Origin: Breznakia sp. PF5-3
Lineage (GTDB): Bacteria > Bacillota_I > Bacilli_A > Erysipelotrichales > Erysipelotrichaceae
Direction of reading: 5' to 3'
Assembly (NCBI RefSeq): GCF_029504745.1
Contig: NZ_JAQFIQ010000028.1
Span: 369 to 32,368 of the forward strand
DNA length: 32,000 nucleotides
Position 1 is the stretch's first letter. Each line of letters starts with the position of its first letter. This document shows, in pieces, positions 1 to 30,918 of this stretch. The translations under genes were made by a program, and so were the position numbers. The notes beneath the pieces were generated by a model. The model did no database searches and was not told where the DNA came from. It saw only the letters and a list, made by a program, of their open reading frames with translations.

Positions 1-1
1 T

Positions 2-6748: not shown

Positions 6749-8089
6749 TTAAAAATCAATTTCGGCTGTGTAATAGTAATTAATTACTACTGGATCTGTT
6801 GATTTTTCCAATACAAAATCTCCACGATCTGCTCCTTGATAAGAGCTTTCTGTCAAGTCTCCAAATTTATATTTATAGTCTTCAATAACGATTGTTGTTC
6901 CTACTTCTAAAGTAACGACTTCTTCTTTATAAACTCGATATTCCTCACCAAGACCTTCTGTATCTACCCAGTGGCGAATGATAATATCTTCTGTGTAATA
7001 AGTTGCGGCATTTGAGAAAACAACTTTATGGGTTCCACTTTTCTTTAATTGTGTCGCTTCTTTTCCTTTACAACATGCTTCATTTGTACGGTATCCAACA
7101 ATGTTTCCATCCTTGAAGTTTGCACTATATGGATCCCCAATCAAACCTTGACCATTATAGTAAATTCCTGCAGGTTCAGAATACCATTGATAGTTACCCA
7201 TATAACACATATTTCTATTTACTGTTGGATACATAGCTGTAACATCAACAGCAACATCATCTGTAACAACCAATCCAGAATTTAAATATATTTCTTGAAC
7301 CATTGCTCCACAGTATGCTCTTAACATTTGTTTATCTGCTTGTAATGCTGAAACTCCACTATAGATATTACGTGAAATTCCAGTAATTGAACTACCTGCA
7401 CCTTCAGCTTGGATATGAGCAATTTGTGTTCTTGCTCCACAACTTCCACCTTCACCACTAACAGTTGCACCTTTCCACGCATAGATATCTCTGTATGCCC
7501 AAATTCCTGTGCTATCAGCTCCTGATGCATAACCATATATTGATGCTGAATAATATGGTTTGATATCGTTATAACACCAAATACCATAATTTATTCCATA
7601 CCCAGAAATTGATCCACCTTCCATTTGAATTTCGTTATATACACGAATTCCAGCTGTAGTTCCTGTTGCACTAACCGTTCCAACACCATTTTTAGTATAT
7701 TTAAATGCTTTTAAATGACCACCAACATTAATACCAAATTCATCTGCTGTATTAGCATTCAAAGCTCCACTACCTCTAAACTCTAAGTCTTTTTTTGTAT
7801 AAATAGAGTTCACATTTACTGGTACTGTATTATTTAAATATATTTTTTGATCTCTTGAACTATAAATTACTGCATTTTCATTCAATAAATAAGTTCCTTT
7901 TTTAGTTGAAAGAATGTTACTACCATCCTTTTGTGTTGTTATTGTTGCATCATATCCTTTCAAGTCAATATTTCCACTTAAAACTGCATAGCTTGATGCA
8001 TCCGCTTTAAATGAAAACGTTAAGACTGAAAAAACCGAAAAAATACTTAACATCACCATAAAACTTTTAAACATTTTGCGCTTCATCAT
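6749..8089 (-). CDS. Secreted protein: Gly/aromatic periodic (beta-helix-like) region plus a C-terminal MucBP-like beta-grasp domain; no anchor
   Basis: I place the start at ATGATG (8089) after GAGGGA. Signal peptide MMKRKMFKSFMVMLSIFSVFSVLTFSFKADA|SS. Recurring G-I-x4-[DE]-I units (GIRVYNEI, GIWCYNDI, GIWAYRDI). The C-terminal IIIRHWVDTEG...VGTTIVIEDYKY...PVVINYYYT resembles MucBP. The family assignment is tentative. Confidence 0.55.
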   Translation of the reverse strand: MMKRKMFKSFMVMLSIFSVFSVLTFSFKADASSYAVLSGNIDLKGYDATITTQKDGSNILSTKKGTYLLNENAVIYSSRDQKIYLNNTVPVNVNSIYTKKDLEFRGSGALNANTADEFGINVGGHLKAFKYTKNGVGTVSATGTTAGIRVYNEIQMEGGSISGYGINYGIWCYNDIKPYYSASIYGYASGADSTGIWAYRDIYAWKGATVSGEGGSCGARTQIAHIQAEGAGSSITGISRNIYSGVSALQADKQMLRAYCGAMVQEIYLNSGLVVTDDVAVDVTAMYPTVNRNMCYMGNYQWYSEPAGIYYNGQGLIGDPYSANFKDGNIVGYRTNEACCKGKEATQLKKSGTHKVVFSNAATYYTEDIIIRHWVDTEGLGEEYRVYKEEVVTLEVGTTIVIEDYKYKFGDLTESSYQGADRGDFVLEKSTDPVVINYYYTAEIDF

Positions 8090-8152
8090 AATTTCTTCAT
8101 TTCCCTCGCTTTCATATGTATTTTTGGATTTATTTACATATATCAAAAGTAT

Positions 8153-8179
8153 GTCGCGCAAGTCCTAAAAAAGGTTTTC
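8153..8179 (-). promoter_or_regulatory. ECF-type promoter P3 (GAAAAC-N17-CGAC) upstream of the secreted-protein gene
   Basis: Minus strand: GAAAAC cttttttaggacttgcg CGAC atac, 63 nt before the ATG at 8089. It shares GACTT..GCGwC.TAC with P1/P2, but the -35 is weaker (AAAC instead of GAAC). It lies inside the TTG-started N-terminal extension of the track ORF. Confidence 0.45.
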
Positions 8180-8267
8180 TTTTTTCTAAAAAAAGTTGTT
8201 TTTTTCATAATTGTTGAACACCTAGTACATATATTAATTTATCATGTTTTCTTTTTTCTTCTTATCG

Positions 8268-8304
8268 ATAAAAAGCAGGTATAAAATATATCATTTATAC
8301 CTGC
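8268..8304 (-). terminator. Intrinsic terminator after the lipoprotein gene
   Basis: Minus strand: GCAGGTATAAAtgatatatTTTATACCTGC followed by TTTTTAT. Confidence 0.8.
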
Positions 8305-8320
8305 ATTCATTTATAGCTAT

Positions 8321-8776
8321 TTATTCAATTTTTCCACAACTATATTCTTCTGCCTCTAATTCTTTTACTAGCTTTTTGATGTTTTTATATTCTTTTATTC
8401 CTAATTCTTTAACATCACCTTCACTTGCTTTACTTGGATCAATTTCTATTTTCACTGATAATTTCTTTTTCTTCTTATCAACTGAAATATCAAATTCTAA
8501 CCCTTTTTGCTTTTTGTTTGGATTTATATAGTCATTCTTATAAAGTTCTTCTAACTCTTCAATTTCATAATCTTCGAACAAGTAATCTGCTAATGCAGCC
8601 TCTCTTGTCACGATAATTTTTTCTACTTTTTTATCACCATCGTATGTAGCTGTTACTTCGTCTACAATTTCTGATGATCCATAATCCAATTTACAAGTTA
8701 CTTCTTTCGCTTTGCTTTCGCCTCCGCATCCTGCTAATACTAGTATTAGACTAAATATCATTACTACTTTTTTCAT
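8321..8776 (-). CDS. Small lipoprotein (151 aa), function unknown
   Basis: MKKVVMIFSLILVLAGC|GG has a canonical lipobox (LAGC). The mature part is Lys/Glu-rich. GGAGG SD upstream. Confidence 0.75.
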   Translation of the reverse strand: MKKVVMIFSLILVLAGCGGESKAKEVTCKLDYGSSEIVDEVTATYDGDKKVEKIIVTREAALADYLFEDYEIEELEELYKNDYINPNKKQKGLEFDISVDKKKKKLSVKIEIDPSKASEGDVKELGIKEYKNIKKLVKELEAEEYSCGKIE

Positions 8777-8877: not shown

Positions 8878-11800
8878 CTATTCTTCCTCTTCTTTTTTTC
8901 TTTTCACTAAGTAAATCACACTCATAAACGATATGATTCCCATTGCGAATAAACTATTTAAATTCGTATCATCACCTGTTGTTACAGCTGTACTTGGTTT
9001 TGATACAGTTGGAGGTGTTACAGATGGTTTTCTTCCTGGTGTTACAGTCACCTTAATCACTGTTGCATATTCTACACCTTCATGTTCAACACTCAACTTC
9101 ACATCGTATACTCCACCAAGAATTGTACTTCCCTTAACTACTCTTAAGTGTTCTTGGTGTACAGCTATCGATTCTTTTGTTGGTGCCAATGCCCTAGTTT
9201 TTGAATTTATGATTACATCTGCTTCTGACAATTCTAATACTTTTGCTTCATTCATGTTTGATGCTTCAGCATGTGAAATTGTGAAATCTTTCGCTGTAAT
9301 ATCTAGAGCTGTTTTCGTTACATTTACATTCACTGTAACTTTTGTTGTTGGTTCTTTCACTACATGGAATGTTACTTGATATACACCAGCTTCTCCTATT
9401 ACATTATGACTCTCTACTTCAACTTTTGCGCTTGAAAGATCTTTCTTCAACCATGCCTCTGCTTCTGTTAAAGCAATCAATTGATCATTTGTAATTGTTT
9501 CTGCTGTGTGTGAGTTTATTGTAATATGGTTTGCCCCAATATAATATTTATCACCTTTCACAATCACATCTTTTGCTTTTACCTTAATTTTAATAGTTGC
9601 TTTTGTATCTTTTTCTTCATCCACATAGAATGTTGCTGTGTAATCACCTTCAGCCGCCTTAAAGTCTGTTGTTTCCAACTTCACTGTTCCTGCACTCATA
9701 TCTTTACGTTTGAATGCTTCCGCTTTTGATAACTCAATTAATTTTGTATTGTCACTAATTGCTTCTGCTTCTGCTAGTGTCATCACTAAATTGTTGGCAA
9801 CAATTGTATATTCATCTCCGTGTTCGATAACATTTCCATCTTTTACTTTGATTTTGATTGTTGCTTTTGTATCTTTTTCTTCATCCACATAGAATGTTGC
9901 TGTGTAGTCACCTTCAGCGGCCTTGAAGTTTGTTGTTTCAAGTTTTACAGTTCCAGCACTCATATCTTTACGTTTGAATGCTTCTGCTTTTGATAATTTA
10001 ATTAACTCATTGTTATTTTTAATTGCTTCAGCTTCTTCCAATGTCATTACTAAATTGTTAGCTCCGATTGTGTATTCATCTCCGTGCTCAATTACATCTT
10101 TATCGATTACTTTGATTTTAATCGTTGCTTTTGTTGCTTTTTCTTCATCTACATAGAACGTTGCTGTATAGTCACCCTTAGCCGCCTTGAAGTTTGTTGT
10201 TTCCAACTTCACTGTTCCAGCACTCATATCTTTGCGCTTGAATGCTTCTGCTTTTGATAACTCAATTAATTTCGTATTGTCACTAATCGCTTTCGCTTCA
10301 TCTAGTGTCATTACTAAGTTGTTTGCTCCGATTGTGTATTCATCTCCGTGCTCGATTACATCTTTATCGATTACTTTGATTTTAATCGTTGCTTTTGTTG
10401 CTTTTTCTTCATCTACATAGAATGTTGCTGTGTAGTCACCTTTCGCTGCTGTAAAGTTTGTTGTTTCAAGTTTTACTGTTCCAGCACTCATATCATCACG
10501 ATTAATTGCTACAGCTTTTGATAACTCAATTAATTTCGTATTGTCAGTGATTGCTTTTGCTTCATCTAATGTCATTACTAAGTTGTTTGCTCCGATTGTA
10601 TACTTATCTCCATGTTCGATTACATCTTTATCGATTACTTTGATTTTAATCGTTGCTTTTGTATCTTTTTCTTCATCTACATAGAATGTCGCTGTATAGT
10701 TACCTTTCGCTGCTGTAAAGTTTGTTGTTTCCAGCTTCACTGTTCCCACACTCATATCTTTACGTTTGAATGCTTCTGCTTTTGATAACTCAATCAGTTT
10801 TGTATTGTCACTAATTGCTTTCGCTTCATCTAGTGTCATTACTAAGTTGTTTGCAACTAGTGTATATTTATCTCCGTGTTCAATTACATTTCCATCTTTT
10901 ACTTTGATCTTAATAGTCACTTTCGTTGCTTTTTCTTCATCTACATAGAATGTTGCTGTATAGTCACCCTTAGCTGCTGTAAAGTCTGTTGTTTCAAGTT
11001 TTACTGTTCCTGCACTCATATCTTTACGTTTGAATGCTTCTGCTTTTGATAACTCAATCAGTTTCGTATTGTCACTAATTGCTTTCGCTTCATCTAGTGT
11101 CATTACTAAGTTGTTTGCTCCAATTGTATACTTATCTCCGTGTTCGATTACATCTTTATCGATTACTTTGATTTTTACTGTTACTTTCGTTGCTTTTTCT
11201 TCATCTACATAGAATGTTGCTGTGTAATCACCCTTAGCTGCTGTAAAGTTTGTTGTTTCAAGTTTTACTGTTCCTTTGCTTAGGTCTTCTAACTTCCATG
11301 CTTCTGCTTTCGCTTTTTTAACTAACTCACTGTTGTCTGTCATCGCTTTCGCTTCATCGACTGTCATTACAATGTTGCTAGCTACTAGTGTATACTTGTC
11401 GCCTTCTTTGATTACATCGCCATCTACTACTTTCGCGATTGCTTTCACTTCATCTTTTGGATCCGTTGCTGCTTTCACTTTGATAACTACTTCGTAATCT
11501 TTGACTTCTGCTTTATATCCACCATTGTCTTTCACCATCAAGTCTGCACTTGGTACTGGCAATCCTGTTGCGATTGACCATGCTTTTGCTTCTGTCTTTT
11601 CTAAGATTTCAGCGTCTGTTCCGGTTACATCATCTTTCAAGATTACATAGTTATGTAAGTCATATGCATAATCTTTTCCTACATACAATCCTACTGCTAC
11701 TACTCTTGATTTCTTAACTGTATTGTAGTCACTGTCAGTTACACTGTATTCTACTACATACATTCCTTTTTTCGATGTATCTACAGTTCCTGTTGATATT

Positions 11801-14800
11801 ACTTTACTTGTAATATCTTTATCTTCTTCATCGTATGCACTAACTCCATGTTTGTAGTCATATGCATCCCCAATATTTAAACTCATGAATTCTGGATTCA
11901 CTGTTAATACTGGCGCATTTCCGTTCACTACTTTTACAGCTACACGAACTTCTGTTGCTGGTTCTTCTGCTACATAGAATGTAACATAGTATGTTCCTAC
12001 GGTTCCTTCAACATTGTGTGTTTTCACTTTTACTGTTCCTGCACTCATGTCTTTACGTTTGAACGCTTCTGCTTTTGTAAGATCAATCAATTGATCATTA
12101 GTAATACTTTCGGCAACACTTCTTGTGATTTCAATGTTGTTAGCTCCGATTGTATACTTATCTCCATGTTCGATTACATCTTTATCGATTACTTTGATTT
12201 TAATCGTTGCTTTTGTATCTTTTTCTTCATCTACATAGAATGTCGCTGTGTAGTCACCTTTTGCTGCTGTAAAGTTTGTTGTTTCAAGTTTTACTGTTCC
12301 TGCACTCATATCATCACGATTAATTGCTACAGCTTTTGATAACTCAATCAGTTTTGTGTTGTCAGTGATTGCTTTCGCTTCATCGACTGTCATTACTAAG
12401 TTGTTAGCTCCGATTGTATACTTATCTCCGTGTTCGATTACATCTTTATCGATTACTTTGATTTTAATCGCTGCTTTCGTTGCTTTTTCTTCATCTACAT
12501 AGAATGTTGCTGTGTAGTCTCCATTAGCTGCCTTGAAGTTTGTTGTTTCAAGTTTTACTGTTCCCACACTCATATCTTTACGTTTGAATGCTTCTGCTTT
12601 CGATAACTCAATCAGTTTTGTATTGTCACTAACCGCTTTCGCTTCATCTAGTGTCATTACTAAGTTGTTGGCAACGATTGTATATTCATCTCCATGTTCA
12701 ATGACATTTCCATCTTTTACTTTGATCTTAATTGTTACTTTCGTCGCTTTTTCTTCATCCACATAGAATGTTGCTGTGTAGTCACCTTCTGCTGCCTTGA
12801 AGTTTGTTGTTTCAAGCTTTACTGTTCCTGCACTCATATCTTTACGTTTGAATGCTTCTGCTTTCGATAACTCAATCAGTTTTGTATTGTCACTAACCGC
12901 TTTCGCTTCATCTAGTGTCATTACTAAGTTGTTTGCTCCGATTGTATACTTATCTCCATGTTCGATTACATCTTTATCGATTACTTTGATTTTTACTGTT
13001 ACTTTCGTTGCTTTTTCTTCATCCACATAGAATGTTGCTGTATAGTCTCCCTTAGCTGCTGTAAAGTTTGTTGTTTCAAGTTTTACTGTTCCTTTGCTTA
13101 GGTCTTCTAACTTCCATGCTTCCGCTTTCGATAACTCAATCAGTTTTGTATTGTCACTAACCGCTTTCGCTTCATCGACTGTCATTACAATGTTGCTAGC
13201 TACTAGTGTATACTTGTCTCCTTCTTTGATTACATCGCCATCTACTACTTTTGCGATTGCTTTCACTTCATCTTTTGGATCCGTTGCCGCTTTCACTTTG
13301 ATAACTACTTCATAATCTTTGACTTCTGCCTTGTATCCACCATTGTCTTTCACCATCAAGTCTGCACTTGGTACTGGCAATCCTGTTGCGATTGACCATG
13401 CTTTTGCTTCTGTCTTTTCTAAGATTTCTGCATCTGTTCCTGTTACATCATCTTTCAAGATTACATAGTTGTGTAAATCATATGCATAATCTTTTCCTAC
13501 ATACAATCCTACTGCTACTACTCTTGATTTTTTAACTGTATTGTAGTCACTGTCAGTTACACTGTATTCTACTACATACATTCCTTTTTTCGATGTATCA
13601 ACAGTTCCTGTTGATATTACTTTACTTGTAATATCTTTATCTTCTTCATCATATGCACTAACTCCATGTTTGTAGTCATATGTATCTCCAATATTTAAAC
13701 TCATGAATTCTGGATTCACTGTTAATACTGGTGCATTTCCGTTCACTACTTTTACAGATACACGAACTTCTGTTGCTGGTTCTTCTGCTACATAGAATGT
13801 AACATAGTATGTTCCTACGGTTCCTTCAACATTGTGTGTTTTCACTTTTACTGTTCCTACACTCATGTCTTTACGTTTGAACGCTTCTGCTTTTGTAAGA
13901 TCAATCAATTGATCATTAGTAATACTTTCAGCTACACTTCTTGTAATTTCAATGTTGTTTGCTCCGATTGTATACTTATCTCCGTGCTCGATTACATCTT
14001 TATCGATTACTTTAATTTTAATCGTTGCTTTCGTTGCTTTTTCTTCATCTACATAGAATGTCGCTGTGTAGTCACCCTTAGCTGCTGTAAAGTTTGTTGT
14101 TTCAAGCTTTACTGTTCCTGCACTCATGTCTTTACGTTTGAATGCTTCTGCTTTTGATAACTCAATCAGTTTTGTGTTGTCACTAATTGCTTTCGCTTCA
14201 TCTAGTGTCATTACTAAGTTGTTTGCTCCGATTGTATACTTATCTCCGTGTTCGATTACATCTTTATCGATTACTTTGATTTTAATCGTTGCTTTTGTTG
14301 CTTTTTCTTCATCTACATAGAATGTTGCTGTATAGTCACCCTTAGCTGCGGCAAAGTTTGTTGTTTCAAGTTTTACTGTTCCTTTGCTTAGGTCTTCTAA
14401 CTTCCATGCTTCTGCTTTCGCTTTGCCTACTAACTCACTGTTGTCTGTCATCGCTTTCGCTTCATCGACTGTCATTACAATGTTGCTAGCTACTAGTGTA
14501 TACTTGTCACCTTCTTTGATTACATCGCCATCTACTACTTTCGCAATTGCTTTCACTTCATCTTTTGGATCTGTTGCTGCTTTTGCTTTGATAACTACTT
14601 CGTAATCTTTGACTTCTGCTTTATATCCACCATTGTCTTTTACCATGATTTCCGATTGTGCAAGTTTTAAACCTGTTTTCGTTGACCATGCTTCTACTTC
14701 TGTCTTTTCTAAGATTTCTGCGTCTGTTCCTGTTACATCATCTTTCAAGATTACATAGTTGTGTAAATCATATGCATAATCTTTTCCTACATACAATCCT

Positions 14801-17800
14801 ACTGCTACTACTCTTGATTTTTTAACTATATTGTAGTCACTGTCAGTTACACTGTATTCTACTACATACATTCCTTTTTTCGATGTATCTACAGTTCCTG
14901 TTGATATTACTTTACTTGTAATATCTTTATCTTCTTCATCGTATGCACTAACTCCATATTTGTAGTCATATGCATCTCCAATATTTAAACTCATGAATTC
15001 TGGATTCACTGTTAATACTGGTGCATTTCCATTAATTACAGTTACTTTAACTTTTACAGTTGTTGATGGATTTTCTTTCACTTGGAAAATAGCATAGTAT
15101 GAAGTTGAAGTGGTATCAGTTCCGATATTTGCTTCTTTTACTTCTACTGCTACTGTACTAAAGTCTTTTACTTTCCATCCTTCTGCATTACCCCAATCAA
15201 TTAAATTATTATTTGTATAATTTTCTGCTTGGCTTCTTGTAATTGTAATGTTATTTGCTCCAATTGCATAATGTTCTTCTGATGTTAATTCATCTTTTTT
15301 CATTACTTTAATTGTAATTGTTGCTTTTGTTGCTTTTTCTTCATCCACATAGAATGTTGCTGTATAAGTACCTTCAGCTGCCTTGAAATCTGTTGTTTCA
15401 AGTTTTACTGTTCCAGCACTCATATCATCACGATTAATTGCTACAGCTTTTGATAACTCAATCAGCTTCGTATTGTCAGTGATTGCTTTCGCTTGCTCAA
15501 CATTCATTACTAAGTTATTAGCTCCGATTGTATATTTGCTTCCTGTTTCAATCACATGCTTATCGATTACTTTGATTTTAATCGTTGCTTTCGTTGCTTT
15601 TTCTTCATCTACATAGAATGTCGCTGTGTAGTCACCCTTAGCTGCTGTAAAGTTTGTTGTTTCAAGCTTTACTGTTCCTGCACTCATGTCTTTACGTTTG
15701 AATGCTTCTGCTTTTGATAACTCAATCAGTTTTGTATTGTCACTAATTGCTTTCGCTTCATCTAGTGTCATTACTAAGTTGTTTGCAACTAGTGTATATT
15801 TATCTCCGTGTTCAATGACATTTCCATCTTTTACTTTGATCTTAATCGTTACTTTCGTCGCTTTTTCTTCATCCACATAGAATGTTGCTGTGTAGTCACC
15901 TTCTGCTGCCTTGAAGTTTGTTGTTTCAAGTTTTACTGTTCCAGCACTCATATCTTTACGTTTGAATGCTTCTGCTTTTGATAACTCAATCAGTTTCGTA
16001 TTGTCACTAATTGCTTTCGCTTCATCTAGTGTCATTACTAAGTTGTTTGCTCCAATTGTATACTTATCTCCGTGTTCGATTACATCTTTATCAATTACTT
16101 TGATTTTTACTGTTACTTTCGTTGCTTTTTCTTCATCTACATAGAATGTTGCTGTATAGTCTCCCTTAGCTGCTGTAAAGTTTGTTGTTTCAAGTTTTAC
16201 TGTTCCTTTGCTTAGGTCTTCTAACTTCCATGCTTCTGCTTTCGCTTTTTTAACTAACTCACTGTTGTCTGTCATCGCTTTCGCTTCATCGACTGTCATT
16301 ACAATGTTGCTAGCTACTAGTGTATACTTGTCGCCTTCTTTGATTACATCGCCATCTACTACTTTCGCGATTGCTTTCACTTCATCTTTTGGATCCGTTG
16401 CCGCTTTCACTTTGATAACTACTTCATAATCTTTGACTTCTGCTTTATATCCACCATTGTCTTTCACCATCAAGTCTGCACTTGGTATTGGCAGTCCTGT
16501 TGCGATTGACCATGCTTTTGCTTCTGTCTTTTCTAAGATTTCAGCATCTGTTCCGGTTACATCATCTTTCAAGATTACATAGTTATGTAAGTCATATGCA
16601 TAATCTTTTCCTACATACAATCCTACTGCTACTACTCTTGATTTCTTAACTGTATTGTAGTCACTGTCAGTTACACTGTATTCTACTACATACATTCCTT
16701 TTTTCGATGTATCTACAGTTCCTGTTGATATTACTTTACTTGTAATATCCTTATCTTCTTCATCGTATGCACTAACTCCATGTTTGTAGTCATATACATC
16801 CCCAATATTTAAACTCATGAATTCTGGATTCACTGTTAATACTGGCGCATTTCCGTTCACTACTTTTACAGCTACACGAACTTCTGTTGCTGGTTCTTCT
16901 GCTACATAGAATGTAACATAGTATGTTCCTACGGTTCCTTCAACATTGTGTGTTTTCACTTTTACAGTTCCTGCACTCATGTCTTTACGTTTGAACGCTT
17001 CTGCTTTTGTAAGATCAATCAATTGATCATTAGTAATACTTTCGGCAACACTTCTTGTGATTTCAATGTTGTTTGCTCCGATTGTATACTTATCTCCATG
17101 TTCGATTACATCTTTATCGATTACTTTGATTTTTACTGTTACTTTCGTTGCTTTTTCTTCATCCACATAGAATGTCGCTGTGTAGTCACCTTTCGCTGCT
17201 GTAAAGTTTGTTGTTTCAAGTTTTACTGTTCCTGCACTCATATCTTTACGTTTGAATGCTTCTGCTTTCGATAACTCAATCAGTTTCGTATTGTCACTAA
17301 TTGCTTTCGCTTCATCTAGTGTCATTACTAAGTTATTTGCTCCGATTGTGTATTCATCTCCGTGTTCGATTACATCTTTATCGATTACTTTGATTTTAAT
17401 CGTTGCCTTTGTTGCTTTTTCTTCATCTACATAGAATGTCGCTGTGTAGTCACCTTTCGCTGCTGTAAAGTTTGTTGCTTCAAGTTTTACTGTTCCTGCA
17501 CTCATGTCTTTACGTTTGAATGCTTCTGCTTTTGATAACTCAATTAATTTCGTATTGTCACTAACCGCTTTCGCTTCATCTAGTGTCATTACTAAGTTGT
17601 TAGCTCCGATTGTATACTTATCTCCGTGTTCGATTACATCTTTATCGATTACTTTGATTTTTACTGTTACTTTCGTTGCTTTTTCTTCATCCACATAGAA
17701 TGTTGCTGTGTAGTCTCCCTTAGCTGCTGTAAAGTTTGTTGTTTCAAGTTTTACTGTTCCTTTGCTTAGGTCTTCTAACTTCCATGCTTCTGCTTTCGCT

Positions 17801-20800
17801 TTTTTAACTAACTCATTGTTGTCTGTCATCGCTTTCGCTTCATCGACTGTCATTACAATGTTGCTAGCTACTAGTGTATACTTGTCGCCTTCTTTGATTA
17901 CATCGCCATCTACTACTTTCGCAATTGCTTTCACTTCATCTTTTGGATCTGTTGCTGCTTTTGCTTTGATAACTACTTCGTAATCTTTGACTTCTGCTTT
18001 ATATCCACCATTGTCTTTTACCATGATTTCCGATTGTGCAAGTTTTAAACCTGTTTTCGTTGACCATGCTTCTACTTCTGTCTTTTCTAAGATTTCAGCA
18101 TCTGTTCCGGTTACATCATCTTTCAAGATTACATAGTTATGTAAGTCATATGCATAATCTTTTCCTACATACAATCCTACTGCTACTACTCTTGATTTCT
18201 TAACTGTATTGTAGTCACTGTCAGTTACACTGTATTCTACTACATACATTCCTTTTTTCGATGTATCTACAGTTCCTGTTGATATTACTTTACTTGTAAT
18301 ATCTTTATCTTCTTCATCGTATGCACTAACTCCATGTTTGTAGTCATATGCATCCCCAATATTTAAACTCATGAATTCTGGATTCACTGTTAATACTGGT
18401 GCATTTCCATTAATTACAGTTACTTTAACTTTTACAGTTGTTGATGGATGTTCTTTCACTTGGTAAACAACATAATAATCTGTTGAAGTAGTATCAGTTC
18501 CAATATTCGCTTCTTTCACTTCTACTGCTACTGTACTAAAGTCTTTTACTTTCCATCCTTCTGCATTACCCCAATTAATTAAATTATCATTTGTATAATT
18601 TTCTGCTTGGCTTCTTGTAATTGTAATGTTATTTGCTCCAATTGCATAATGATCTTCTGATGTTAATTCATCTTTCTTCATTACTTTAATTGTAATTGTT
18701 GCTTTTGTATCTTTTTCTTCATCTACATAGAATGTTGCTGTATAAGTACCTTCTGCTGCTTTGAAATCTGTTGTTTCAAGTTTTACTGTTCCTGCACTCA
18801 TATCATCACGATTAATTGCTACAGCTTTTGATAACTCAATCAGTTTTGTGTTGTCAGTGATTGCTTTCGCTTGCTCAACATTCATCACTAAGTTATTAGC
18901 TCCGATTGTATATTTGCTACCTGTTTCAATCACATGCTTGTCGATTACTTTGATTTTAATCGTTGCTTTTGTTGCTTTTTCTTCATCTACATAGAATATC
19001 GCTGTATAGTCACCCTTAGCTGCTGTAAAGTTTGTTGTTTCAAGTTTTACTGTTCCTGCACTCATGTCTTTACGTTTGAATGCTTCTGCTTTTGATAACT
19101 CAATCAGTTTTGTATTGTCACTAATTGCTTTCGCTTCATCTAGTGTCATTACTAAGTTGTTTGCAACTAGTGTATATTTATCTCCGTGTTCAATGACATT
19201 TCCATCTTTTACTTTGATCTTAATAGTTACTTTCGTTGCTTTTTCTTCATCTACATAGAATGTTGCTGTGTAGTCACCTTCAGCTGCCTTGAAGTTTGTT
19301 GTTTCAAGTTTTACTGTTCCAGCACTCATATCTTTACGTTTGAATGCTTCTGCTTTTGATAACTCAATCAGTTTTGTATTGTCACTAATCGCTTTCGCTT
19401 CATCTAGTGTCATTACTAAGTTGTTTGCTCCGATTGTATACTTATCTCCGTGTTCGATTACATCTTTATCGATTACTTTGATTTTTACTGTTACTTTCGT
19501 TGCTTTTTCTTCATCCACATAGAATGTCGCTGTATAGTCTCCCTTAGCTGCTGTAAAGTTTGTTGTTTCAAGTTTTACTGTTCCTTTGCTTAGGTCTTCT
19601 AACTTCCATGCTTCTGCTTTCGCTTTTTTAACTAACTCACTGTTGTCTGTCATCGCTTTCGCTTCATCGACTGTCATTACAATGTTGCTAGCTACTAGTG
19701 TATACTTGTCGCCTTCTTTGATTACATCGCCATCTACTACTTTCGCGATTGCTTTCACTTCATCTTTTGGATCCGTTGCTGCTTTCACTTTGATAACTAC
19801 TTCGTAATCTTTGACTTCTGCTTTATATCCACCATTGTCTTTCACCATCAAGTCTGCACTTGGTATTGGCAGTCCTGTTGCGATTGACCATGCTTTTGCT
19901 TCTGTCTTTTCTAAGATTTCAGCATCTGTTCCGGTTACATCATCTTTCAAGATTACATAGTTATGTAAGTCATATGCATAATCTTTTCCTACATACAATC
20001 CTACTGCTACTACTCTTGATTTCTTAACTGTATTGTAGTCACTGTCAGTTACACTGTATTCTACTACATACATTCCTTTTTTCGATGTATCTACAGTTCC
20101 TGTTGATATTACTTTACTTGTAATATCTTTATCTTCTTCATCATATGCACTAACTCCATGTTTGTAGTCATATGCATCCCCAATATTTAAACTCATGAAT
20201 TCTGGATTCACTGTTAATACTGGTGCTTTTCCATTAATTACGTTTACATCTACCGTTGCTTTTACACTTGGATCTGCATCTACCTTGAAAGTCGCTTTAT
20301 ATAATGATGCAACTCCCTTTACAGTATGTGTATCTAAGGATACTGCTACTTCACTACGATCAGATCTCTTCCATCCTTTCGCACCTGTCAACGATTTTAA
20401 TTCTGTCGCTGCATATGTTGCATTATCTTCGATTTTCTTTGCTTCACCTAAGCGAATCTCAATATGGTTTGCTCCTATGATATATTCATCATTTACTTCT
20501 ACTACATCATATGGTAATACTTCAAAGGTTACTTCTTTTGTGATAGTTTCTTCTTTTCCTACACTAAAGACTACCTTATATTCTCCAGCTTCTGCTTTAT
20601 ATCCACCTTTTGATTTAACTTTTACAGGTGTTTCTGTACCTAAAGATGTATCGATTGCTTTCGCTTTCGCTAAATTAATAAAGTCTTGATCATCTACTAC
20701 TAATTTAGCATTATCTAACCCGATGATTACATCATTTGCACTAATCGTATATAACACTTTTTGAACAATCACTTTCGTTGCTGCTTTAAAAGTAGCATCG

Positions 20801-23403
20801 TGATAATCTTTTGTTGCTACTGGATTTTTATTTCCATTTGCATCTGTTAGGAAAATTTGAACTACATCATTTTCTTTTAATGTTGTTCCTGCAGGGAATG
20901 TATAATTCCAAGTATTATCATCATTAATTGTTCCTTCATTCCCCATTTCAACGCCGTTTAAAGTAACTGTTAATTTTACTGGCTTATCATTATTATGAAT
21001 AGCATCCAATTCCCATGTTCCTTCTAGCTTATTTCCATTTGTATATAATGTGTTTGTTACTGTTACTGGTAATGGAGGTGTTACATCACTTACCGTAACC
21101 TTGCCCACTAAAATATCTTCTGCATTCGCAACATGACGCTTTGAAGAAGTTGGATCTTCATCTCCACGCCAAGCTTCCAACACTTCATATGTTGAACCTG
21201 GTGTTAAAAATTCATTTAATGGAACTGTATACATCCCACCACGAGGTTCTTCACCATATACTGCTAATCCTGGATTATCATTATCTTTACCAATCGTTTT
21301 GGCATAATATGTATTTTGTGTTCCATCTGCTTTTACTTCTAAAATTTTCACATACACTTCATCTGTCCATGCATCCCTACCATTAAGATCTAAACCTTCT
21401 GGTACTCTTGCATGACCAAAAATACTCTTATCCGCATTTTCTGGGTTTCTCAACTCATCAATTATTGGTGTTGCATTATTTCCACTAATACGTGTATATC
21501 CTGCCATTCCTGTACTACCAAATGATGCTGCACCACTATTGAAGTCAGGATCTGATGAATTTGCTATTGTAGTAAAGTTTTGACCCGTTAAACTATAGTC
21601 AATTAAAACCCAACTTTTCCATGGGTTACCATCTACATTAGCTCCTTTTTTCCACACAGCTACATCTGAATTAATAGATTCTAGCTTTGAAGTTGATCCA
21701 TTTGTTGTTCTAAATACACTTCCTCCACCAGAACGGTTGTTTACAAAGTCATAATACAAAATATTTTCGGCATGAAAATCTAGATTTCTACCATTAATTA
21801 CTGCTGCATCAGCTCCTGCTGTATTACCTTCAACAATAAAGATTGCTCCATTTGTTGCATTAATGGTTGCATCAGAAGCATCCATATCCAAAGCACATCC
21901 ATTTTCTGCAATAATTGATATTGCACTATTTTTACCATCTACTGAAAACGATGCAGATGATGCTGATTGATATTGAATAGCTTGGTTTCTTGCATCTGAG
22001 TTTCCATCCCTTGGTGTTCCATCACCTGCATTTTGAACTAATACCTGACTACCACCAGATACCTTAAATGCATTTCCATCTCCAAAGAAACGAATCGCTG
22101 GTGCGCGACTTCCTTCTTCTTTAACTATCTTTACATTCGCTTGATTTGTTACATTAAAAGTTTGGTTACCAACATATCTAAATCGAATTGTTGCACCATA
22201 GGTATTATGACCATCTTTTGAGTATAAATTCAAATTTGATCCAGCACCATCTACGTTAAATTCTCCGCCTCCAGTAACCTGTTGAATAAGAGCTGGCATT
22301 GCTCCTTTACTGTTAACCGTTAAGCTTGAGCCTGAATTTACATAAATCCCTGATGCTTCATTTCCGGCAATCGTTGAACCACAAATAACAACAACTCCAC
22401 CATCATCTCCACTTGAAGATCCTGTTGATTCAATATTTACATGAGAATTATCTTCCACTTTAAATTGAACTCTATTTTGAGTAGTTGAACTTGAATTATT
22501 ATTAGCAAAAATTGCTTGTTCAGTACCTGTATTTATATTTAATGTTGAACCTCCTAATACCTCTAAACCTGTTACTGCTTTTGTACTTGCTACAGGATTT
22601 AGACGAATAAGTCCTGCACCAGTATTAGTACTCAAGTTTACAGTAGCTCCATCTTTAATATATATATAACGTGTATAAATCATTTCATTATAAGTACTTG
22701 TTGGCATTAGCCAATTCACTGTACCTGTAAAGTTAATAACACTGTTTCTTGCCGTTACTAACCTACTGTCACTACTTGATCCATTACTAACATTATGGAA
22801 ATTAATATTCCAGTTAGCATCATCGGTTTCTGCAGCAACAACATAATTTGCTCCACTTCTTTGAATCACAATATTTGATAACGTAAATTGTGATGGCGTT
22901 GACGCCGTTGCTAACACGAAACTATTTCTTGTAACGGTTGTAAAATCTAGAGTGAACCCATTACCATCTATTATCAAATTACGATTGACTTCAGGCAAAT
23001 CATTTGCTGATGCCGTACTACCATCTCTGGTAATATGTTTCGTAAATTTAATATGAGAAACATTGCTATCGCTCATAGCAGCTTTTAAAGTAGTCCAATC
23101 GCTTACTTCAACTGTTGCTGCTCTTGGTTTCGCGTCAAAAGTAGAAACATCCTGTGGAGGCGTTTCTTCTTGTTCTGTTTCTTCACTTGTATCTTCTTCT
23201 TGAGGCTCTTCTTCAACCTCTGAAGGCTCTTCTACCTCTTCTTCTGGACTGACATCTTCTGTTATGACATCATCTGCATCAGCAGTTAATAACACATCGC
23301 CGACTAAAGATGATACACCTAAAGACGTAAATGTCAGTAAAAAACAAAGCATAACTGTGAACAGTGTTTTCTGTTTTTTCCAGAAATTCTTCTTTTTACT
23401 CAT
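8878..23403 (-). CDS. Giant (4841 aa) repetitive cell-surface adhesin: signal peptide, acidic spacer, pectate-lyase-like beta-helix, Ig-like domains, six repeat modules, C-terminal TTGD + TM + KRKK anchor
   Basis: Single uninterrupted ORF with a strong SD (AGGAGGAGGG). N-terminal signal peptide (TLFTVMLCFLLTFTSLGVSSLVG). E/P/T-rich acidic stretch. Beta-helix region. Six DUF5011-like Ig domains (APVLTVNPEFMSLNIGDAYDYKHGVSAYDEEDKDITSKV...GMYVVEYSVTDSDYN). About thirty ~88-aa repeats (my hand count). C-terminal VTTGDDTNLNSLFAMGIISFMSVIYLVKRKKEEEE. Confidence 0.9.
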   Translation of the reverse strand: MSKKKNFWKKQKTLFTVMLCFLLTFTSLGVSSLVGDVLLTADADDVITEDVSPEEEVEEPSEVEEEPQEEDTSEETEQEETPPQDVSTFDAKPRAATVEVSDWTTLKAAMSDSNVSHIKFTKHITRDGSTASANDLPEVNRNLIIDGNGFTLDFTTVTRNSFVLATASTPSQFTLSNIVIQRSGANYVVAAETDDANWNINFHNVSNGSSSDSRLVTARNSVINFTGTVNWLMPTSTYNEMIYTRYIYIKDGATVNLSTNTGAGLIRLNPVASTKAVTGLEVLGGSTLNINTGTEQAIFANNNSSSTTQNRVQFKVEDNSHVNIESTGSSSGDDGGVVVICGSTIAGNEASGIYVNSGSSLTVNSKGAMPALIQQVTGGGEFNVDGAGSNLNLYSKDGHNTYGATIRFRYVGNQTFNVTNQANVKIVKEEGSRAPAIRFFGDGNAFKVSGGSQVLVQNAGDGTPRDGNSDARNQAIQYQSASSASFSVDGKNSAISIIAENGCALDMDASDATINATNGAIFIVEGNTAGADAAVINGRNLDFHAENILYYDFVNNRSGGGSVFRTTNGSTSKLESINSDVAVWKKGANVDGNPWKSWVLIDYSLTGQNFTTIANSSDPDFNSGAASFGSTGMAGYTRISGNNATPIIDELRNPENADKSIFGHARVPEGLDLNGRDAWTDEVYVKILEVKADGTQNTYYAKTIGKDNDNPGLAVYGEEPRGGMYTVPLNEFLTPGSTYEVLEAWRGDEDPTSSKRHVANAEDILVGKVTVSDVTPPLPVTVTNTLYTNGNKLEGTWELDAIHNNDKPVKLTVTLNGVEMGNEGTINDDNTWNYTFPAGTTLKENDVVQIFLTDANGNKNPVATKDYHDATFKAATKVIVQKVLYTISANDVIIGLDNAKLVVDDQDFINLAKAKAIDTSLGTETPVKVKSKGGYKAEAGEYKVVFSVGKEETITKEVTFEVLPYDVVEVNDEYIIGANHIEIRLGEAKKIEDNATYAATELKSLTGAKGWKRSDRSEVAVSLDTHTVKGVASLYKATFKVDADPSVKATVDVNVINGKAPVLTVNPEFMSLNIGDAYDYKHGVSAYDEEDKDITSKVISTGTVDTSKKGMYVVEYSVTDSDYNTVKKSRVVAVGLYVGKDYAYDLHNYVILKDDVTGTDAEILEKTEAKAWSIATGLPIPSADLMVKDNGGYKAEVKDYEVVIKVKAATDPKDEVKAIAKVVDGDVIKEGDKYTLVASNIVMTVDEAKAMTDNSELVKKAKAEAWKLEDLSKGTVKLETTNFTAAKGDYTATFYVDEEKATKVTVKIKVIDKDVIEHGDKYTIGANNLVMTLDEAKAISDNTKLIELSKAEAFKRKDMSAGTVKLETTNFKAAEGDYTATFYVDEEKATKVTIKIKVKDGNVIEHGDKYTLVANNLVMTLDEAKAISDNTKLIELSKAEAFKRKDMSAGTVKLETTNFTAAKGDYTAIFYVDEEKATKATIKIKVIDKHVIETGSKYTIGANNLVMNVEQAKAITDNTKLIELSKAVAINRDDMSAGTVKLETTDFKAAEGTYTATFYVDEEKDTKATITIKVMKKDELTSEDHYAIGANNITITRSQAENYTNDNLINWGNAEGWKVKDFSTVAVEVKEANIGTDTTSTDYYVVYQVKEHPSTTVKVKVTVINGNAPVLTVNPEFMSLNIGDAYDYKHGVSAYDEEDKDITSKVISTGTVDTSKKGMYVVEYSVTDSDYNTVKKSRVVAVGLYVGKDYAYDLHNYVILKDDVTGTDAEILEKTEVEAWSTKTGLKLAQSEIMVKDNGGYKAEVKDYEVVIKAKAATDPKDEVKAIAKVVDGDVIKEGDKYTLVASNIVMTVDEAKAMTDNNELVKKAKAEAWKLEDLSKGTVKLETTNFTAAKGDYTATFYVDEEKATKVTVKIKVIDKDVIEHGDKYTIGANNLVMTLDEAKAVSDNTKLIELSKAEAFKRKDMSAGTVKLEATNFTAAKGDYTATFYVDEEKATKATIKIKVIDKDVIEHGDEYTIGANNLVMTLDEAKAISDNTKLIELSKAEAFKRKDMSAGTVKLETTNFTAAKGDYTATFYVDEEKATKVTVKIKVIDKDVIEHGDKYTIGANNIEITRSVAESITNDQLIDLTKAEAFKRKDMSAGTVKVKTHNVEGTVGTYYVTFYVAEEPATEVRVAVKVVNGNAPVLTVNPEFMSLNIGDVYDYKHGVSAYDEEDKDITSKVISTGTVDTSKKGMYVVEYSVTDSDYNTVKKSRVVAVGLYVGKDYAYDLHNYVILKDDVTGTDAEILEKTEAKAWSIATGLPIPSADLMVKDNGGYKAEVKDYEVVIKVKAATDPKDEVKAIAKVVDGDVIKEGDKYTLVASNIVMTVDEAKAMTDNSELVKKAKAEAWKLEDLSKGTVKLETTNFTAAKGDYTATFYVDEEKATKVTVKIKVIDKDVIEHGDKYTIGANNLVMTLDEAKAISDNTKLIELSKAEAFKRKDMSAGTVKLETTNFKAAEGDYTATFYVDEEKATKVTIKIKVKDGNVIEHGDKYTLVANNLVMTLDEAKAISDNTKLIELSKAEAFKRKDMSAGTVKLETTNFTAAKGDYTATFYVDEEKATKATIKIKVIDKHVIETGSKYTIGANNLVMNVEQAKAITDNTKLIELSKAVAINRDDMSAGTVKLETTDFKAAEGTYTATFYVDEEKATKATITIKVMKKDELTSEEHYAIGANNITITRSQAENYTNNNLIDWGNAEGWKVKDFSTVAVEVKEANIGTDTTSTSYYAIFQVKENPSTTVKVKVTVINGNAPVLTVNPEFMSLNIGDAYDYKYGVSAYDEEDKDITSKVISTGTVDTSKKGMYVVEYSVTDSDYNIVKKSRVVAVGLYVGKDYAYDLHNYVILKDDVTGTDAEILEKTEVEAWSTKTGLKLAQSEIMVKDNGGYKAEVKDYEVVIKAKAATDPKDEVKAIAKVVDGDVIKEGDKYTLVASNIVMTVDEAKAMTDNSELVGKAKAEAWKLEDLSKGTVKLETTNFAAAKGDYTATFYVDEEKATKATIKIKVIDKDVIEHGDKYTIGANNLVMTLDEAKAISDNTKLIELSKAEAFKRKDMSAGTVKLETTNFTAAKGDYTATFYVDEEKATKATIKIKVIDKDVIEHGDKYTIGANNIEITRSVAESITNDQLIDLTKAEAFKRKDMSVGTVKVKTHNVEGTVGTYYVTFYVAEEPATEVRVSVKVVNGNAPVLTVNPEFMSLNIGDTYDYKHGVSAYDEEDKDITSKVISTGTVDTSKKGMYVVEYSVTDSDYNTVKKSRVVAVGLYVGKDYAYDLHNYVILKDDVTGTDAEILEKTEAKAWSIATGLPVPSADLMVKDNGGYKAEVKDYEVVIKVKAATDPKDEVKAIAKVVDGDVIKEGDKYTLVASNIVMTVDEAKAVSDNTKLIELSKAEAWKLEDLSKGTVKLETTNFTAAKGDYTATFYVDEEKATKVTVKIKVIDKDVIEHGDKYTIGANNLVMTLDEAKAVSDNTKLIELSKAEAFKRKDMSAGTVKLETTNFKAAEGDYTATFYVDEEKATKVTIKIKVKDGNVIEHGDEYTIVANNLVMTLDEAKAVSDNTKLIELSKAEAFKRKDMSVGTVKLETTNFKAANGDYTATFYVDEEKATKAAIKIKVIDKDVIEHGDKYTIGANNLVMTVDEAKAITDNTKLIELSKAVAINRDDMSAGTVKLETTNFTAAKGDYTATFYVDEEKDTKATIKIKVIDKDVIEHGDKYTIGANNIEITRSVAESITNDQLIDLTKAEAFKRKDMSAGTVKVKTHNVEGTVGTYYVTFYVAEEPATEVRVAVKVVNGNAPVLTVNPEFMSLNIGDAYDYKHGVSAYDEEDKDITSKVISTGTVDTSKKGMYVVEYSVTDSDYNTVKKSRVVAVGLYVGKDYAYDLHNYVILKDDVTGTDAEILEKTEAKAWSIATGLPVPSADLMVKDNGGYKAEVKDYEVVIKVKAATDPKDEVKAIAKVVDGDVIKEGDKYTLVASNIVMTVDEAKAMTDNSELVKKAKAEAWKLEDLSKGTVKLETTNFTAAKGDYTATFYVDEEKATKVTVKIKVIDKDVIEHGDKYTIGANNLVMTLDEAKAISDNTKLIELSKAEAFKRKDMSAGTVKLETTDFTAAKGDYTATFYVDEEKATKVTIKIKVKDGNVIEHGDKYTLVANNLVMTLDEAKAISDNTKLIELSKAEAFKRKDMSVGTVKLETTNFTAAKGNYTATFYVDEEKDTKATIKIKVIDKDVIEHGDKYTIGANNLVMTLDEAKAITDNTKLIELSKAVAINRDDMSAGTVKLETTNFTAAKGDYTATFYVDEEKATKATIKIKVIDKDVIEHGDEYTIGANNLVMTLDEAKAISDNTKLIELSKAEAFKRKDMSAGTVKLETTNFKAAKGDYTATFYVDEEKATKATIKIKVIDKDVIEHGDEYTIGANNLVMTLEEAEAIKNNNELIKLSKAEAFKRKDMSAGTVKLETTNFKAAEGDYTATFYVDEEKDTKATIKIKVKDGNVIEHGDEYTIVANNLVMTLAEAEAISDNTKLIELSKAEAFKRKDMSAGTVKLETTDFKAAEGDYTATFYVDEEKDTKATIKIKVKAKDVIVKGDKYYIGANHITINSHTAETITNDQLIALTEAEAWLKKDLSSAKVEVESHNVIGEAGVYQVTFHVVKEPTTKVTVNVNVTKTALDITAKDFTISHAEASNMNEAKVLELSEADVIINSKTRALAPTKESIAVHQEHLRVVKGSTILGGVYDVKLSVEHEGVEYATVIKVTVTPGRKPSVTPPTVSKPSTAVTTGDDTNLNSLFAMGIISFMSVIYLVKRKKEEEE
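13705..16818 (-). repeat. Super-repeat copy 2 (3114 nt: modules 3+4; one 264-nt unit shorter than copy 1)
   Basis: 16816-13702 = 3114 = 3378-264. Module 4 has three 88-aa units where module 2 has four. Confidence 0.8.
16819..20196 (-). repeat. Super-repeat copy 1 (3378 nt: modules 1+2)
   Basis: Offset of exactly 3378 nt to copy 2. Antisense ORF translations at 18761/15383, 19064/15686, 19289/15911 and 19586/16208 are letter-for-letter identical. DNA at 19579 onward matches 16201 onward by eye. Confidence 0.85.
21465..23121 (-). other. N-terminal pectate-lyase-like (right-handed beta-helix) adhesive domain of the giant protein
   Basis: VSDWTTLKAAMSDSNVSHIKFTKHI...NRNLIIDGNGFTLDF opening followed by many short G/N/S/T-rich rungs (VNLSTNTGAG, LNINTGTEQA, VNIESTGSSSG, LTVNSKGA, FNVDGAGSN...). 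The pattern matches adhesive beta-helix domains of Firmicute surface proteins, but the family is assigned by eye only. Confidence 0.55.
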
Positions 23404-23484
23404 TTAATACCCTCCTCCTATTGGCTTTTATTCAAGCAAATATCACACATATGAAAAATCAATTTTCATAATGAGTATCGGTAA

Positions 23485-23511
23485 GACGCATAAGTCAAAA
23501 TTCAGGTTCAT
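23485..23511 (-). promoter_or_regulatory. ECF-type promoter P2 (ATGAAC-N17-CGTC) upstream of the giant adhesin gene
   Basis: Minus strand: ATGAAC ctgaattttgacttatg CGTC ttac. It starts 25 nt after the stop of the LRR gene and lies ~81 nt before the adhesin ATG. Near-identical to P1 across TGACTTAwGCGTCwTAC. Confidence 0.65.
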
Positions 23512-27391: not shown

Positions 27392-27398
27392 ATTCGCC

Positions 27399-28718: not shown

Positions 28719-28747
28719 AAAGTATCGCCCCCATCCACTTCATGTAT

Positions 28748-28774
28748 GACGCTTAAGTCAGCGAAAAAGTTCAC
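28748..28774 (-). promoter_or_regulatory. ECF-type promoter P1 (GTGAAC-N17-CGTC) upstream of the sigma operon (putative autoregulation)
   Basis: Minus strand: GTGAAC tttttcgctgacttaag CGTC atac, 29 nt before the sigma ATG and immediately downstream of the grcA-like terminator. Confidence 0.65.
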
Positions 28775-30039: not shown

Positions 30040-30051
30040 AAGTTGATCCTC

Positions 30052-30900: not shown

Positions 30901-30918
30901 ATATTTACGCTCCTAATT

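Follow-up and report, generated by a model that had tools for sequence, protein, structure and literature searches.

A giant surface protein of Breznakia sp. PF5-3 with a 45-domain repetitive stalk and the layout of a probably sortase-anchored fibrillar adhesin

The window analysed here is a stretch of 32,000 nt from Breznakia sp. PF5-3, a member of a genus of insect-gut bacteria in the Erysipelotrichaceae. Its central part is occupied by the gene of a giant surface protein, a single uninterrupted open reading frame (ORF) on the minus strand (8878-23403). The coding sequence (CDS) is complete in the ORF list with 4,841 aa and a stop codon, and an identical protein is present in a public Breznakia sp. 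cluster. The ATG is located 7 nt downstream of a strong Shine-Dalgarno sequence, AGGAGGAGGG. The protein is composed of a signal peptide, an acidic linker, a head of about 790 aa, a stalk of 45 small domains, and an LPXTG-type sorting signal. The stalk contains six immunoglobulin (Ig)-like domains of the family PF16403 and 39 units of approximately 88 aa.

All parts of the protein are given below by their window positions, on the minus strand. The signal peptide region (aa ~1-44; 23272-23403) was read off the translation; it has a basic n-region, a hydrophobic core, and a putative cleavage site in ...LLTADA/DD, and is followed by an acidic low-complexity linker that reaches aa ~90. The head region (aa 97-881; 20761-23115) includes a PF20585 domain (Pectate_lyase_5, a putative adhesive domain), which was matched in Pfam at aa 97-209 (22777-23115) with 58.2 bits against a cut-off of 24.3. 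Next come U1 and U2 (aa 882-1055; 20239-20760), two divergent pre-module units that were recognised with a hidden Markov model (HMM) of the unit and have one-to-one orthologues in Breznakia pachnodae. At the other end, the stalk is closed by a divergent C-terminal unit (aa 4695-4788; 9040-9321), also found with the unit HMM, whose orthologue is the final unit of the B. pachnodae protein. The remaining segment (8881-9039), recognised by TIGR01167, contains a Pro/Ser/Thr-rich linker and the sorting signal, which consists of AVTTG-DDTN, a hydrophobic stretch, and KRKKEEEE.

Between U2 and the C-terminal unit lie six modules, which were delimited by the spacing of an anchor sequence and by parsing the units into classes denoted by letters. 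Module 1 (18415-20238; 1824 nt) reads Ig-G-A-B-C-D-T2, module 2 (16861-18414; 1554 nt) reads Ig-G'-A-B-B-T1, and module 3 (15037-16860; 1824 nt) again reads Ig-G-A-B-C-D-T2, its DNA being 97.1% identical to that of module 1 over 1,824 nt in the alignment. Module 4 (13747-15036; 1290 nt), with the order Ig-G'-A-B-T1, is module 2 less one unit, and unit comparison identified its lone B unit as a chimera with a B-type head and a C-type tail. Module 5 (11929-13746; 1818 nt) reads Ig-G-A-B-C-D-T1, with an A unit that carries a conversion patch of ~45 nt from an adjoining B/C unit, and module 6 (9322-11928; 2607 nt) reads Ig-G-A-B-C-D-B-B-C-T3. The positional rule of the stalk can be written as U1-U2-[Ig-G-A-(B/C/D)n-T]x6-Cterm: a G unit always follows the Ig domain, an A unit always follows G, a T unit always precedes the next Ig domain, and only the number of interior B/C/D units varies.

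The sequence-only reading of this DNA had described three nested levels of repetition between 9043 and 20766, and all three are real. The edges of the array were only a few bases off, since U1 starts at 20760 and the C-terminal unit ends at 9040. At the level of the unit, about thirty copies plus divergent ones had been counted by hand, and the HMM raised this number to 39, comprising 24 canonical A, B, C, and D units, six T units, six G units, U1, U2, and the C-terminal unit. The motif FYV[DA]EE is common to 27 A/B/C/D/T1 units and is spaced 87-88 aa within modules. Tandem Repeats Finder reported 264-nt arrays with 81-87% matches throughout 9579-19585. At the level of the module, the anchor APVLTVNPEF occurs six times (aa 1060, 1668, 2186, 2794, 3224, and 3830), and the anchor-to-anchor spacings equal exactly the 1824, 1554, 1824, 1290, and 1818 nt that had been proposed as module lengths. 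The DUF5011-like module openers correspond to six PF16403 domains (Bact_surface_Ig-like, formerly DUF5011; 208.9 bits in total, with a Pfam cut-off of 27), and the GLYVGK... unit expected after each of them was found through GLYVGKDYAYDLHNYVILKDD, which occurs six times, each 75 aa past the anchor.

The autocorrelation of base identity has peaks at 264, 528, 1290, 1554, 1818/1824, 3114, 3378, and 4932 nt, with z values of 6-11. The value is 0.546 at 264 nt (z=9.3) and reaches its maximum of 0.596 at 3378 nt (z=11.1), compared with an out-of-frame background of 0.282 +/- 0.006. The 3378-nt signal of the proposed two-module super-repeat is real; there are only two copies of it (M1M2 and M3M4), and modules 5 and 6 break the alternation. 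Similarly, the order of subtypes is constant as had been proposed, with the restriction that modules 2 and 4 lack the VKDGN and AINRDD (C and D) units. The mass of ~0.5 MDa that had been assigned to the stalk is, by our own arithmetic, that of the whole protein, the stalk having ~3,900 aa.

On the opposite strand of the array, three ORFs of ~107 aa with GTG start codons (12016-12339, 13834-14157, and 16948-17274, plus strand) recur at the module spacing. The possibility that such ORFs (e.g., 12016-12339) are real genes was rejected, because their module-spaced recurrence marks them as antisense echoes of the repeat.

The ~88-aa unit did not correspond to any family in the domain libraries searched. 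In Pfam-A the best E value was 0.00086, under the gathering score and to unrelated families, a full module gave nothing in NCBIfam, and profile searches of the PDB returned a best E value of 0.05. The structure of the unit predicted by AlphaFold2 from an alignment of 93 sequences is a compact domain with six strands and two short helices (mean predicted local distance difference test score, pLDDT, 96.7) in the order beta-beta-alpha-alpha-beta-beta-beta-beta, with both helices in the N-terminal half. A Foldseek search of the PDB with this structure gave no match at E <= 0.001; the top non-significant matches were an InlK domain (4l3a, template modelling (TM) score 0.59) and a Big_3 domain (2kpn). 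In a profile-profile alignment with hhalign, the C-terminal half of the unit aligned with PF16403 at 75% probability over 41 columns, with the common pattern A.A.D..dG...V.V....v...G.Y.V.Y.V. The unit is like PF16403/Big_3 Ig-like domains in this half and unlike them in its N-terminal half with the two short helices. We therefore regard the ~88-aa unit as a putative Ig-related stalk domain for which no model exists.

The same unit is widespread. A word-index search with the unit profile gave no matches and an exhaustive HMM search was required, which found the unit in at least 500 cluster representatives, 130 of them with E < 1e-30 among the matches listed. Many of the unit-bearing proteins are giant, with up to 7,440 aa and up to 41 copies; the stalk patterns among them are (Ig-u)n, (Ig-uu)n, (Ig-uuu)n, (Ig-uuuu)n, or (u)n, where u denotes the unit.

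The relationships among the units reflect the history of the array. Module duplication, which the sequence-only reading had preferred to simple slippage, is supported: the DNA of a unit is closest to that of units of the same class elsewhere in the array and not to that of its neighbours. Between modules, DNA identity is 89-99% for A units, 92-97% for B units (M1-M5 and the first B of M6), 91-98% for C units (M1, M3, M5, and the first C of M6), and 84-95% for D units, compared with 76-90% for adjacent units of the same module. At the protein level, adjacent B/C units are ~88-94% identical. The Ig domains of the protein are 95-99% identical to one another, and the Ig+G+A blocks of different modules share 91-99% of their DNA overall, with 98-99% among modules 1, 3, and 6 and 96.7% between modules 2 and 4. 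Exact runs of 323-325 nt occur at offsets of 3378 and 8310 nt, and an offset of 264 nt gives 52 identical stretches of 20 nt or more, the longest of 103 nt. Because exact runs exist at both unit and module offsets, substrates for homologous recombination are available at all levels.

The earlier claim of unequal recombination is supported by unit comparison, which revealed chimeric units and a conversion patch. The A unit of module 5 contains a tract of ~45 nt that is identical to the B and C units of the same module, including synonymous variants specific to module 5, with A-type sequence on either side. In the D units of modules 5 and 6, a B-type head precedes a D-type middle. The B/C chimera in module 4 is what an unequal crossover deleting one unit would be expected to produce. 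Since units cluster by class and chimeric units are present, the array grew by module duplication together with unit-level unequal recombination and gene conversion. Synonymous divergence (dS) ranges from 0.29 to 0.94 for adjacent units and from 0.05 to 0.24 across modules, and the ratio of nonsynonymous to synonymous divergence (dN/dS) among units is 0.07-0.39. With synonymous sites diverged and dN/dS low, the sameness of the unit proteins is maintained by purifying selection, and the repeats are not young, freely drifting copies. The same dN/dS values led us to reject diversifying selection or antigenic variation as an explanation of the units.

Two related loci allowed a comparison across strains and species. 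The sister strain Breznakia sp. PFB2-8 (locus L002, GCA_029504775.1) carries, in an independent assembly, a gene of 14,526 nt that also encodes 4,841 aa and differs from the window gene by 22 substitutions (99.85% identity). Twenty of these are located in CDS nt 500-1500, i.e., in the head (window 21900-22900), and are mostly synonymous, and one of the 22 falls into the 11.7-kb array, the length and module order of which are unchanged. A second patch of divergence between the sister strains was observed at ~26000-28000 (92-99% identity), covering the genes of a sigma factor and a 402-aa protein, with the rest of the locus at 99.4-100%. The patches in the head and in the sigma/402-aa genes look like imported recombination tracts.

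In Breznakia pachnodae DSM 16784 (locus L003), the orthologue has 5,054 aa and is encoded at a syntenic position on a contig of 275 kb. Its stalk has eight modules with 3, 3, 3, 3, 3, 5, 6, and 11 units, arranged as U1-U2-(Ig-G-A-T)x5, Ig-G-A-B-C-T, Ig-G-A-B-C-D-T, and Ig-G-A plus eight units, followed by T3 and the C-terminal unit. All units of this protein map to the corresponding class of the window protein, with the first unit after the Ig domain being G, the second A, the last T2/T3, and the interior units B/C, while U1, U2, and the C-terminal unit correspond one to one. Because of this class-by-class mapping, the order of the unit classes is ancestral. The heads of the two proteins are 47% identical. 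The Ig domains are 67-94% identical among B. pachnodae modules 1-6 and 39-51% identical between the species, and B. pachnodae has a two-module duplication of its own, with modules 3 and 5 being 94-98% and modules 2 and 4 being 87-92% identical. These values indicate that amplification or homogenisation of the copies took place independently in the two Breznakia lineages. The length of the protein differs between the species by whole units and modules.

The most probable history of the array is as follows. The unit family is old, and its position classes probably diverged before the split between the window lineage and B. pachnodae. Whole modules, and once a two-module block, were then probably duplicated recently in the lineage of the window. 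Unequal crossing-over of units and short conversion tracts added, deleted, and patched units, and purifying selection holds the protein nearly constant while synonymous sites drift.

Apart from the 113 residues matched by PF20585, the remaining ~670 residues of the head gave no sequence match in Pfam or the PDB. Homologues of the head were found at 20 genome loci by an alignment-based scan and at 11 metagenome loci; a genome scan with single-sequence peptide patterns had 0 matches. With the head as query, a word-index search returned no more than two proteins; the sister allele, at 99.9% identity, was not among them, so this index seems to overlook giant proteins. Conservation of the head extends to Erysipelotrichaceae, to one Coprobacillaceae metagenome-assembled genome (MAG), and to numerous MAGs of Eubacteriales Family XIII, Coriobacteriia, and Actinomycetes. 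The relatives at loci L004-L034 belong mostly to Erysipelotrichaceae and to MAGs whose names suggest termite or other insect-gut metagenomes, and most of them share the beginning of the stalk, U-U-Ig. The relatives in Bacillus australimaris and Enterococcus are shorter proteins that have the head without a stalk. The metagenomes of the JGI contained only distant relatives with 29-36% identity and no alleles of the same species. The same Breznakia strains also encode a giant paralogue of like design (P0055, P0036, P0174, and P0053), whose head shares 36% identity with that of the window protein.

At the C-terminus, the AVTTG motif is followed by LNSLFAMGIISFMSVIYLV-KRKK, i.e., a hydrophobic segment and a positive tail. 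Other members of the unit family end in LPxTG or xxTGD followed by a transmembrane stretch and basic residues. This fits an LPXTG-like variant of the sortase signal, and the giant protein is probably anchored by a sortase. Two neighbouring surface proteins of the window end likewise, a 907-aa protein with VSAGD (23536-23680) and a 307-aa protein with INTGD (4346-4480); in each, a hydrophobic stretch and a basic tail come after the motif. The set of AVTTGD, VSAGD, and INTGD endings suggests that the sortase motif has a variant form specific to this lineage.

Taken as a whole, the repetitive region is best read as the stalk of a fibrillar adhesin of the "Periscope-like" kind, secreted by Breznakia sp. 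and probably anchored by a sortase, a reading to which we assign a probability of about 0.8. The label "adhesin" may reasonably be applied in view of the putative PF20585 head, the stalk, and the LPXTG-type anchor. From the sequence we infer display on the surface, an extended rod shape, and adhesion. The putative adhesive head would sit at the far end of a beta-rich chain of 45 domains, for which we estimate a rod length of ~0.15-0.2 micrometre at 3.5-4.5 nm per domain.

Modular stalks built from heterogeneous domains are represented by the G5-E repeats of SasG/Aap, the FIVAR-GA modules of Staphylococcus aureus Ebh, and the super-repeats of titin. Like these, the array of the window protein repeats a multi-domain module and has higher-order super-repeats. 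Unlike these, its module consists of 4-10 copies of one family in position classes plus one Ig domain, and the number of interior units differs between the modules of the one protein.

The layout of head, stalk, and anchor is that of fibrillar adhesins (Monzon et al., PMC9210967; also PMC8286594), which the window protein resembles in its PF20585 head, repetitive stalk, anchor, great length, and Firmicutes host. It is unlike the described fibrillar adhesins in that 39 of its 45 stalk domains have no Pfam model, and a domain-based screen would see six. The second comparison concerns the Periscope Proteins (SasG/Aap, Rib, and the SHIRT-domain protein Sgo_0707; Whelan et al. 2021, PMC8201768), with which the window protein shares the Gram-positive host, the N-terminal head, and the LPXTG-type anchor. 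Its tandem array of very similar small domains likewise goes against the rule that neighbouring domains diverge, and the DNA is probably alike enough for intragenic recombination, which the chimeric units show to have taken place. However, the highest identities in the window are found between modules 1.3-8.3 kb apart, and the stalk unit belongs to none of the listed Pfam stalk families. Variation in length between strains, the hallmark of that group, is absent between the sister alleles and was seen only between species. In the titles and abstract openings returned by literature searches on Breznakia and on DUF5011 adhesins, neither the window protein nor the unit was mentioned.

The protein is not a new class of system, since its kind is already known. 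What is somewhat new is the combination of a stalk domain family without a model, a conserved order of unit classes with a variable interior, and a conserved promoter of the extracytoplasmic function (ECF) type, which is described below.

A number of observations weigh against the reading as a sortase-anchored Periscope-like adhesin. On the side of the anchor, TIGR01167 (LPXTG_anchor) scored 17.8 bits on the giant protein, barely over its cut-off of 15.9, the canonical LPXTG pentapeptide is absent with AVTTG(D) in its place, and no sortase gene is present within the 32-kb window. On the side of the head, PF20585 is itself described only as a "putative" adhesive domain, and it covers 113 of ~790 residues. 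With regard to the rod geometry, a single-sequence AlphaFold2 model of four tandem units had low confidence (pLDDT 36). Unlike the repeats of Periscope Proteins, adjacent repeats of the window are 76-93% identical in DNA and not near-identical, with substantial synonymous divergence, and the sister alleles show no difference in length, although this near-clonal pair has little power to reveal the strain-to-strain length variation that the sequence-only reading had predicted. The exact copy number depends on the assemblies and is one of the main uncertainties.

This last point leads to the question of whether the number and order of the modules could be an artefact of short-read assembly, in which near-identical repeats were collapsed or expanded. 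The contigs measure just 32 kb and 41 kb, exact repeats extend up to 325 nt, the k-mer based Logan assembly of SRR35245974 breaks inside the array at 9625, and the paralogous giant gene of the same strains is in fragments, consisting of contigs of ~2.7-5.5 kb and an N-terminal piece cut at the end of a 68-kb contig, so arrays of this kind do cause breaks in the public assemblies. However, each module has its own substitutions, with module pairs differing by 1-9% over the Ig+G+A block, and since no exact repeat is longer than 325 nt, paired reads can place the modules. The reading frame is unbroken for 14.5 kb, the sister-strain assembly has the same length and order with its 22 substitutions in the gene, and the B. 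pachnodae orthologue on the 275-kb contig keeps the class order with different counts. An assembly artefact is consequently considered highly improbable. If the array is taken as assembled, its fixed order could itself be functional, with the T-Ig-G-A junction acting as a structural or ligand-binding unit that is kept whole and the B/C/D units as neutral spacers. The arrangement Ig-G-A...T is kept in 14 of 14 modules of two species despite Ig identities of 39-51%, five B. pachnodae modules consist of Ig-G-A-T alone, and dN/dS is low. Against this, duplication of whole modules preserves the order automatically, so that its conservation alone is no proof of constraint, and the relatives with (Iu)n, (Iuu)n, (Iuuu)n, or (u)n stalks, where I denotes the Ig domain, show that no single junction arrangement is required across the family. 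We treat a functional junction as a tentative proposal that is less probable than an order left over from the history of the array.

A different role of the protein would leave the architecture intact: the beta-helix-like head may act as a surface-tethered enzyme that degrades or modifies a polysaccharide of the insect gut, with the stalk only giving reach, or the whole may be a structural fibre, spacer, or coat. The sole family match of the head has a pectate-lyase-like fold, stalk-free relatives of the head exist in Bacillus and Enterococcus, and the products of the surrounding genes include further surface proteins, a bactofilin-domain protein, and a signal peptidase. On the other hand, no catalytic pectate-lyase or glycoside-hydrolase family was found in Pfam/NCBIfam, where only PF20585 and PF16403 exceeded the per-domain thresholds; PF20585 is defined as an adhesive-type domain of fibrillar adhesins, and the head-stalk-anchor layout is what defines these adhesins (PMC9210967). 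An enzymatic or purely structural role is thus unlikely, and the fibrillar adhesin is the preferred reading.

The giant gene is part of a gene cassette that is syntenic between the window (3760-28718) and the B. pachnodae locus (4737-28453), the outer flanks being different. The cassette begins with an ECF sigma factor fusion gene, followed by the genes of a membrane-anchored protein of ~400 aa, a surface protein of ~900 aa with leucine-rich repeats (LRR) and PF16403, and the giant protein. After the giant gene come the genes of a lipoprotein of ~150 aa and a secreted protein of 470 aa, and then those of a membrane protein with a bactofilin domain, a surface protein with LRR_5, and a type I signal peptidase whose catalytic boxes are intact. 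The gene of the 470-aa secreted protein (6749-8161) is found only in the window lineage and not in the B. pachnodae cassette. The sigma factor gene (27399-28718, minus strand; 439 aa) encodes an ECF sigma factor joined to a membrane-spanning/extracytoplasmic C-terminal half and was recognised by the Pfam families Sigma70_r2/r4_2/ECF and by TIGR02937 (85.8 bits). The lipoprotein gene (8321-8776, minus strand; 151 aa) lies directly downstream of the giant gene and is a conserved downstream neighbour in B. pachnodae.

A motif scan revealed a promoter-like element, TGAACC-N16-GCGTCTTAC, 78 nt upstream of the ATG of the giant gene (23481-23510, minus strand), and a second copy 26 nt upstream of the ECF sigma gene (28744-28773, minus strand). 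The pattern TGAA-N17-20-GCGTCWTAC has two matches in the window, at the sigma gene and the giant gene, and 0 in 100 shuffled sequences. The motif recurs at both of these positions in the sister strain and in B. pachnodae (4673-4703 and 9886-9917); the strict pattern derived from the window missed the latter, which has TGAAAC(C) and not TGAAC, and a relaxed pattern matched it. The element resembles ECF-type promoters such as that of Bacillus subtilis sigma-W, TGAAAC-N16-CGTA. We infer that the ECF sigma factor autoregulates its own gene and drives the giant and lipoprotein genes. There is no terminator-like hairpin between the giant and lipoprotein genes, and because the only one on this strand (8275-8304) follows the lipoprotein gene, the two genes are probably co-transcribed.

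A joint reading can be put forward, in which the Ig-related stalk family lacking a model, the Ig-G-A-(B/C/D)n-T rule, and a cassette of eight genes switched on by an ECF sigma/anti-sigma fusion of its own would together form a regulated, length-adjustable surface-fibre system characteristic of insect-gut Firmicutes/Actinobacteria. In this reading the cassette comprises the gene of the sigma fusion, those of two or three accessory surface proteins, the giant and lipoprotein genes, and those of the bactofilin-domain protein and the dedicated signal peptidase. This broader proposal is speculative, and we consider it rather doubtful as a whole. The window protein nevertheless provides a fully parsed case of how a half-megadalton surface protein is assembled, and its orthologue shows which parts vary freely. 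Since a common stalk domain is missed by the domain libraries, screens for fibrillar adhesins under-count, especially in insect-gut bacteria. The conserved ECF-type promoter offers a handle on when a costly giant protein is made.

Several minor observations were made in the remainder of the window. Between the lipoprotein gene and the gene of the 470-aa protein, a 21-nt tandem duplication in two copies (8165-8206) lies beside the hairpin at 8275-8304, which has a perfect 11-bp stem and scores as a terminator on both strands. The upstream 907-aa protein is annotated with 891 aa in the sister strain, probably owing to a later start codon. Upstream of the cassette, three tandem paralogues of the DegV family (284, 282, and 284 aa) are encoded at 29185-31773 on the minus strand. 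At the opposite end, a gene of a copper-type P-type ATPase (1-2332, plus strand) is cut by the start of the window, and the public annotation of this locus (L001) gives 837 aa compared with a 750-aa ORF. Downstream of the ATPase gene are a CsoR-like gene (2336-2608), a rubrerythrin gene, and a Fur-family gene.

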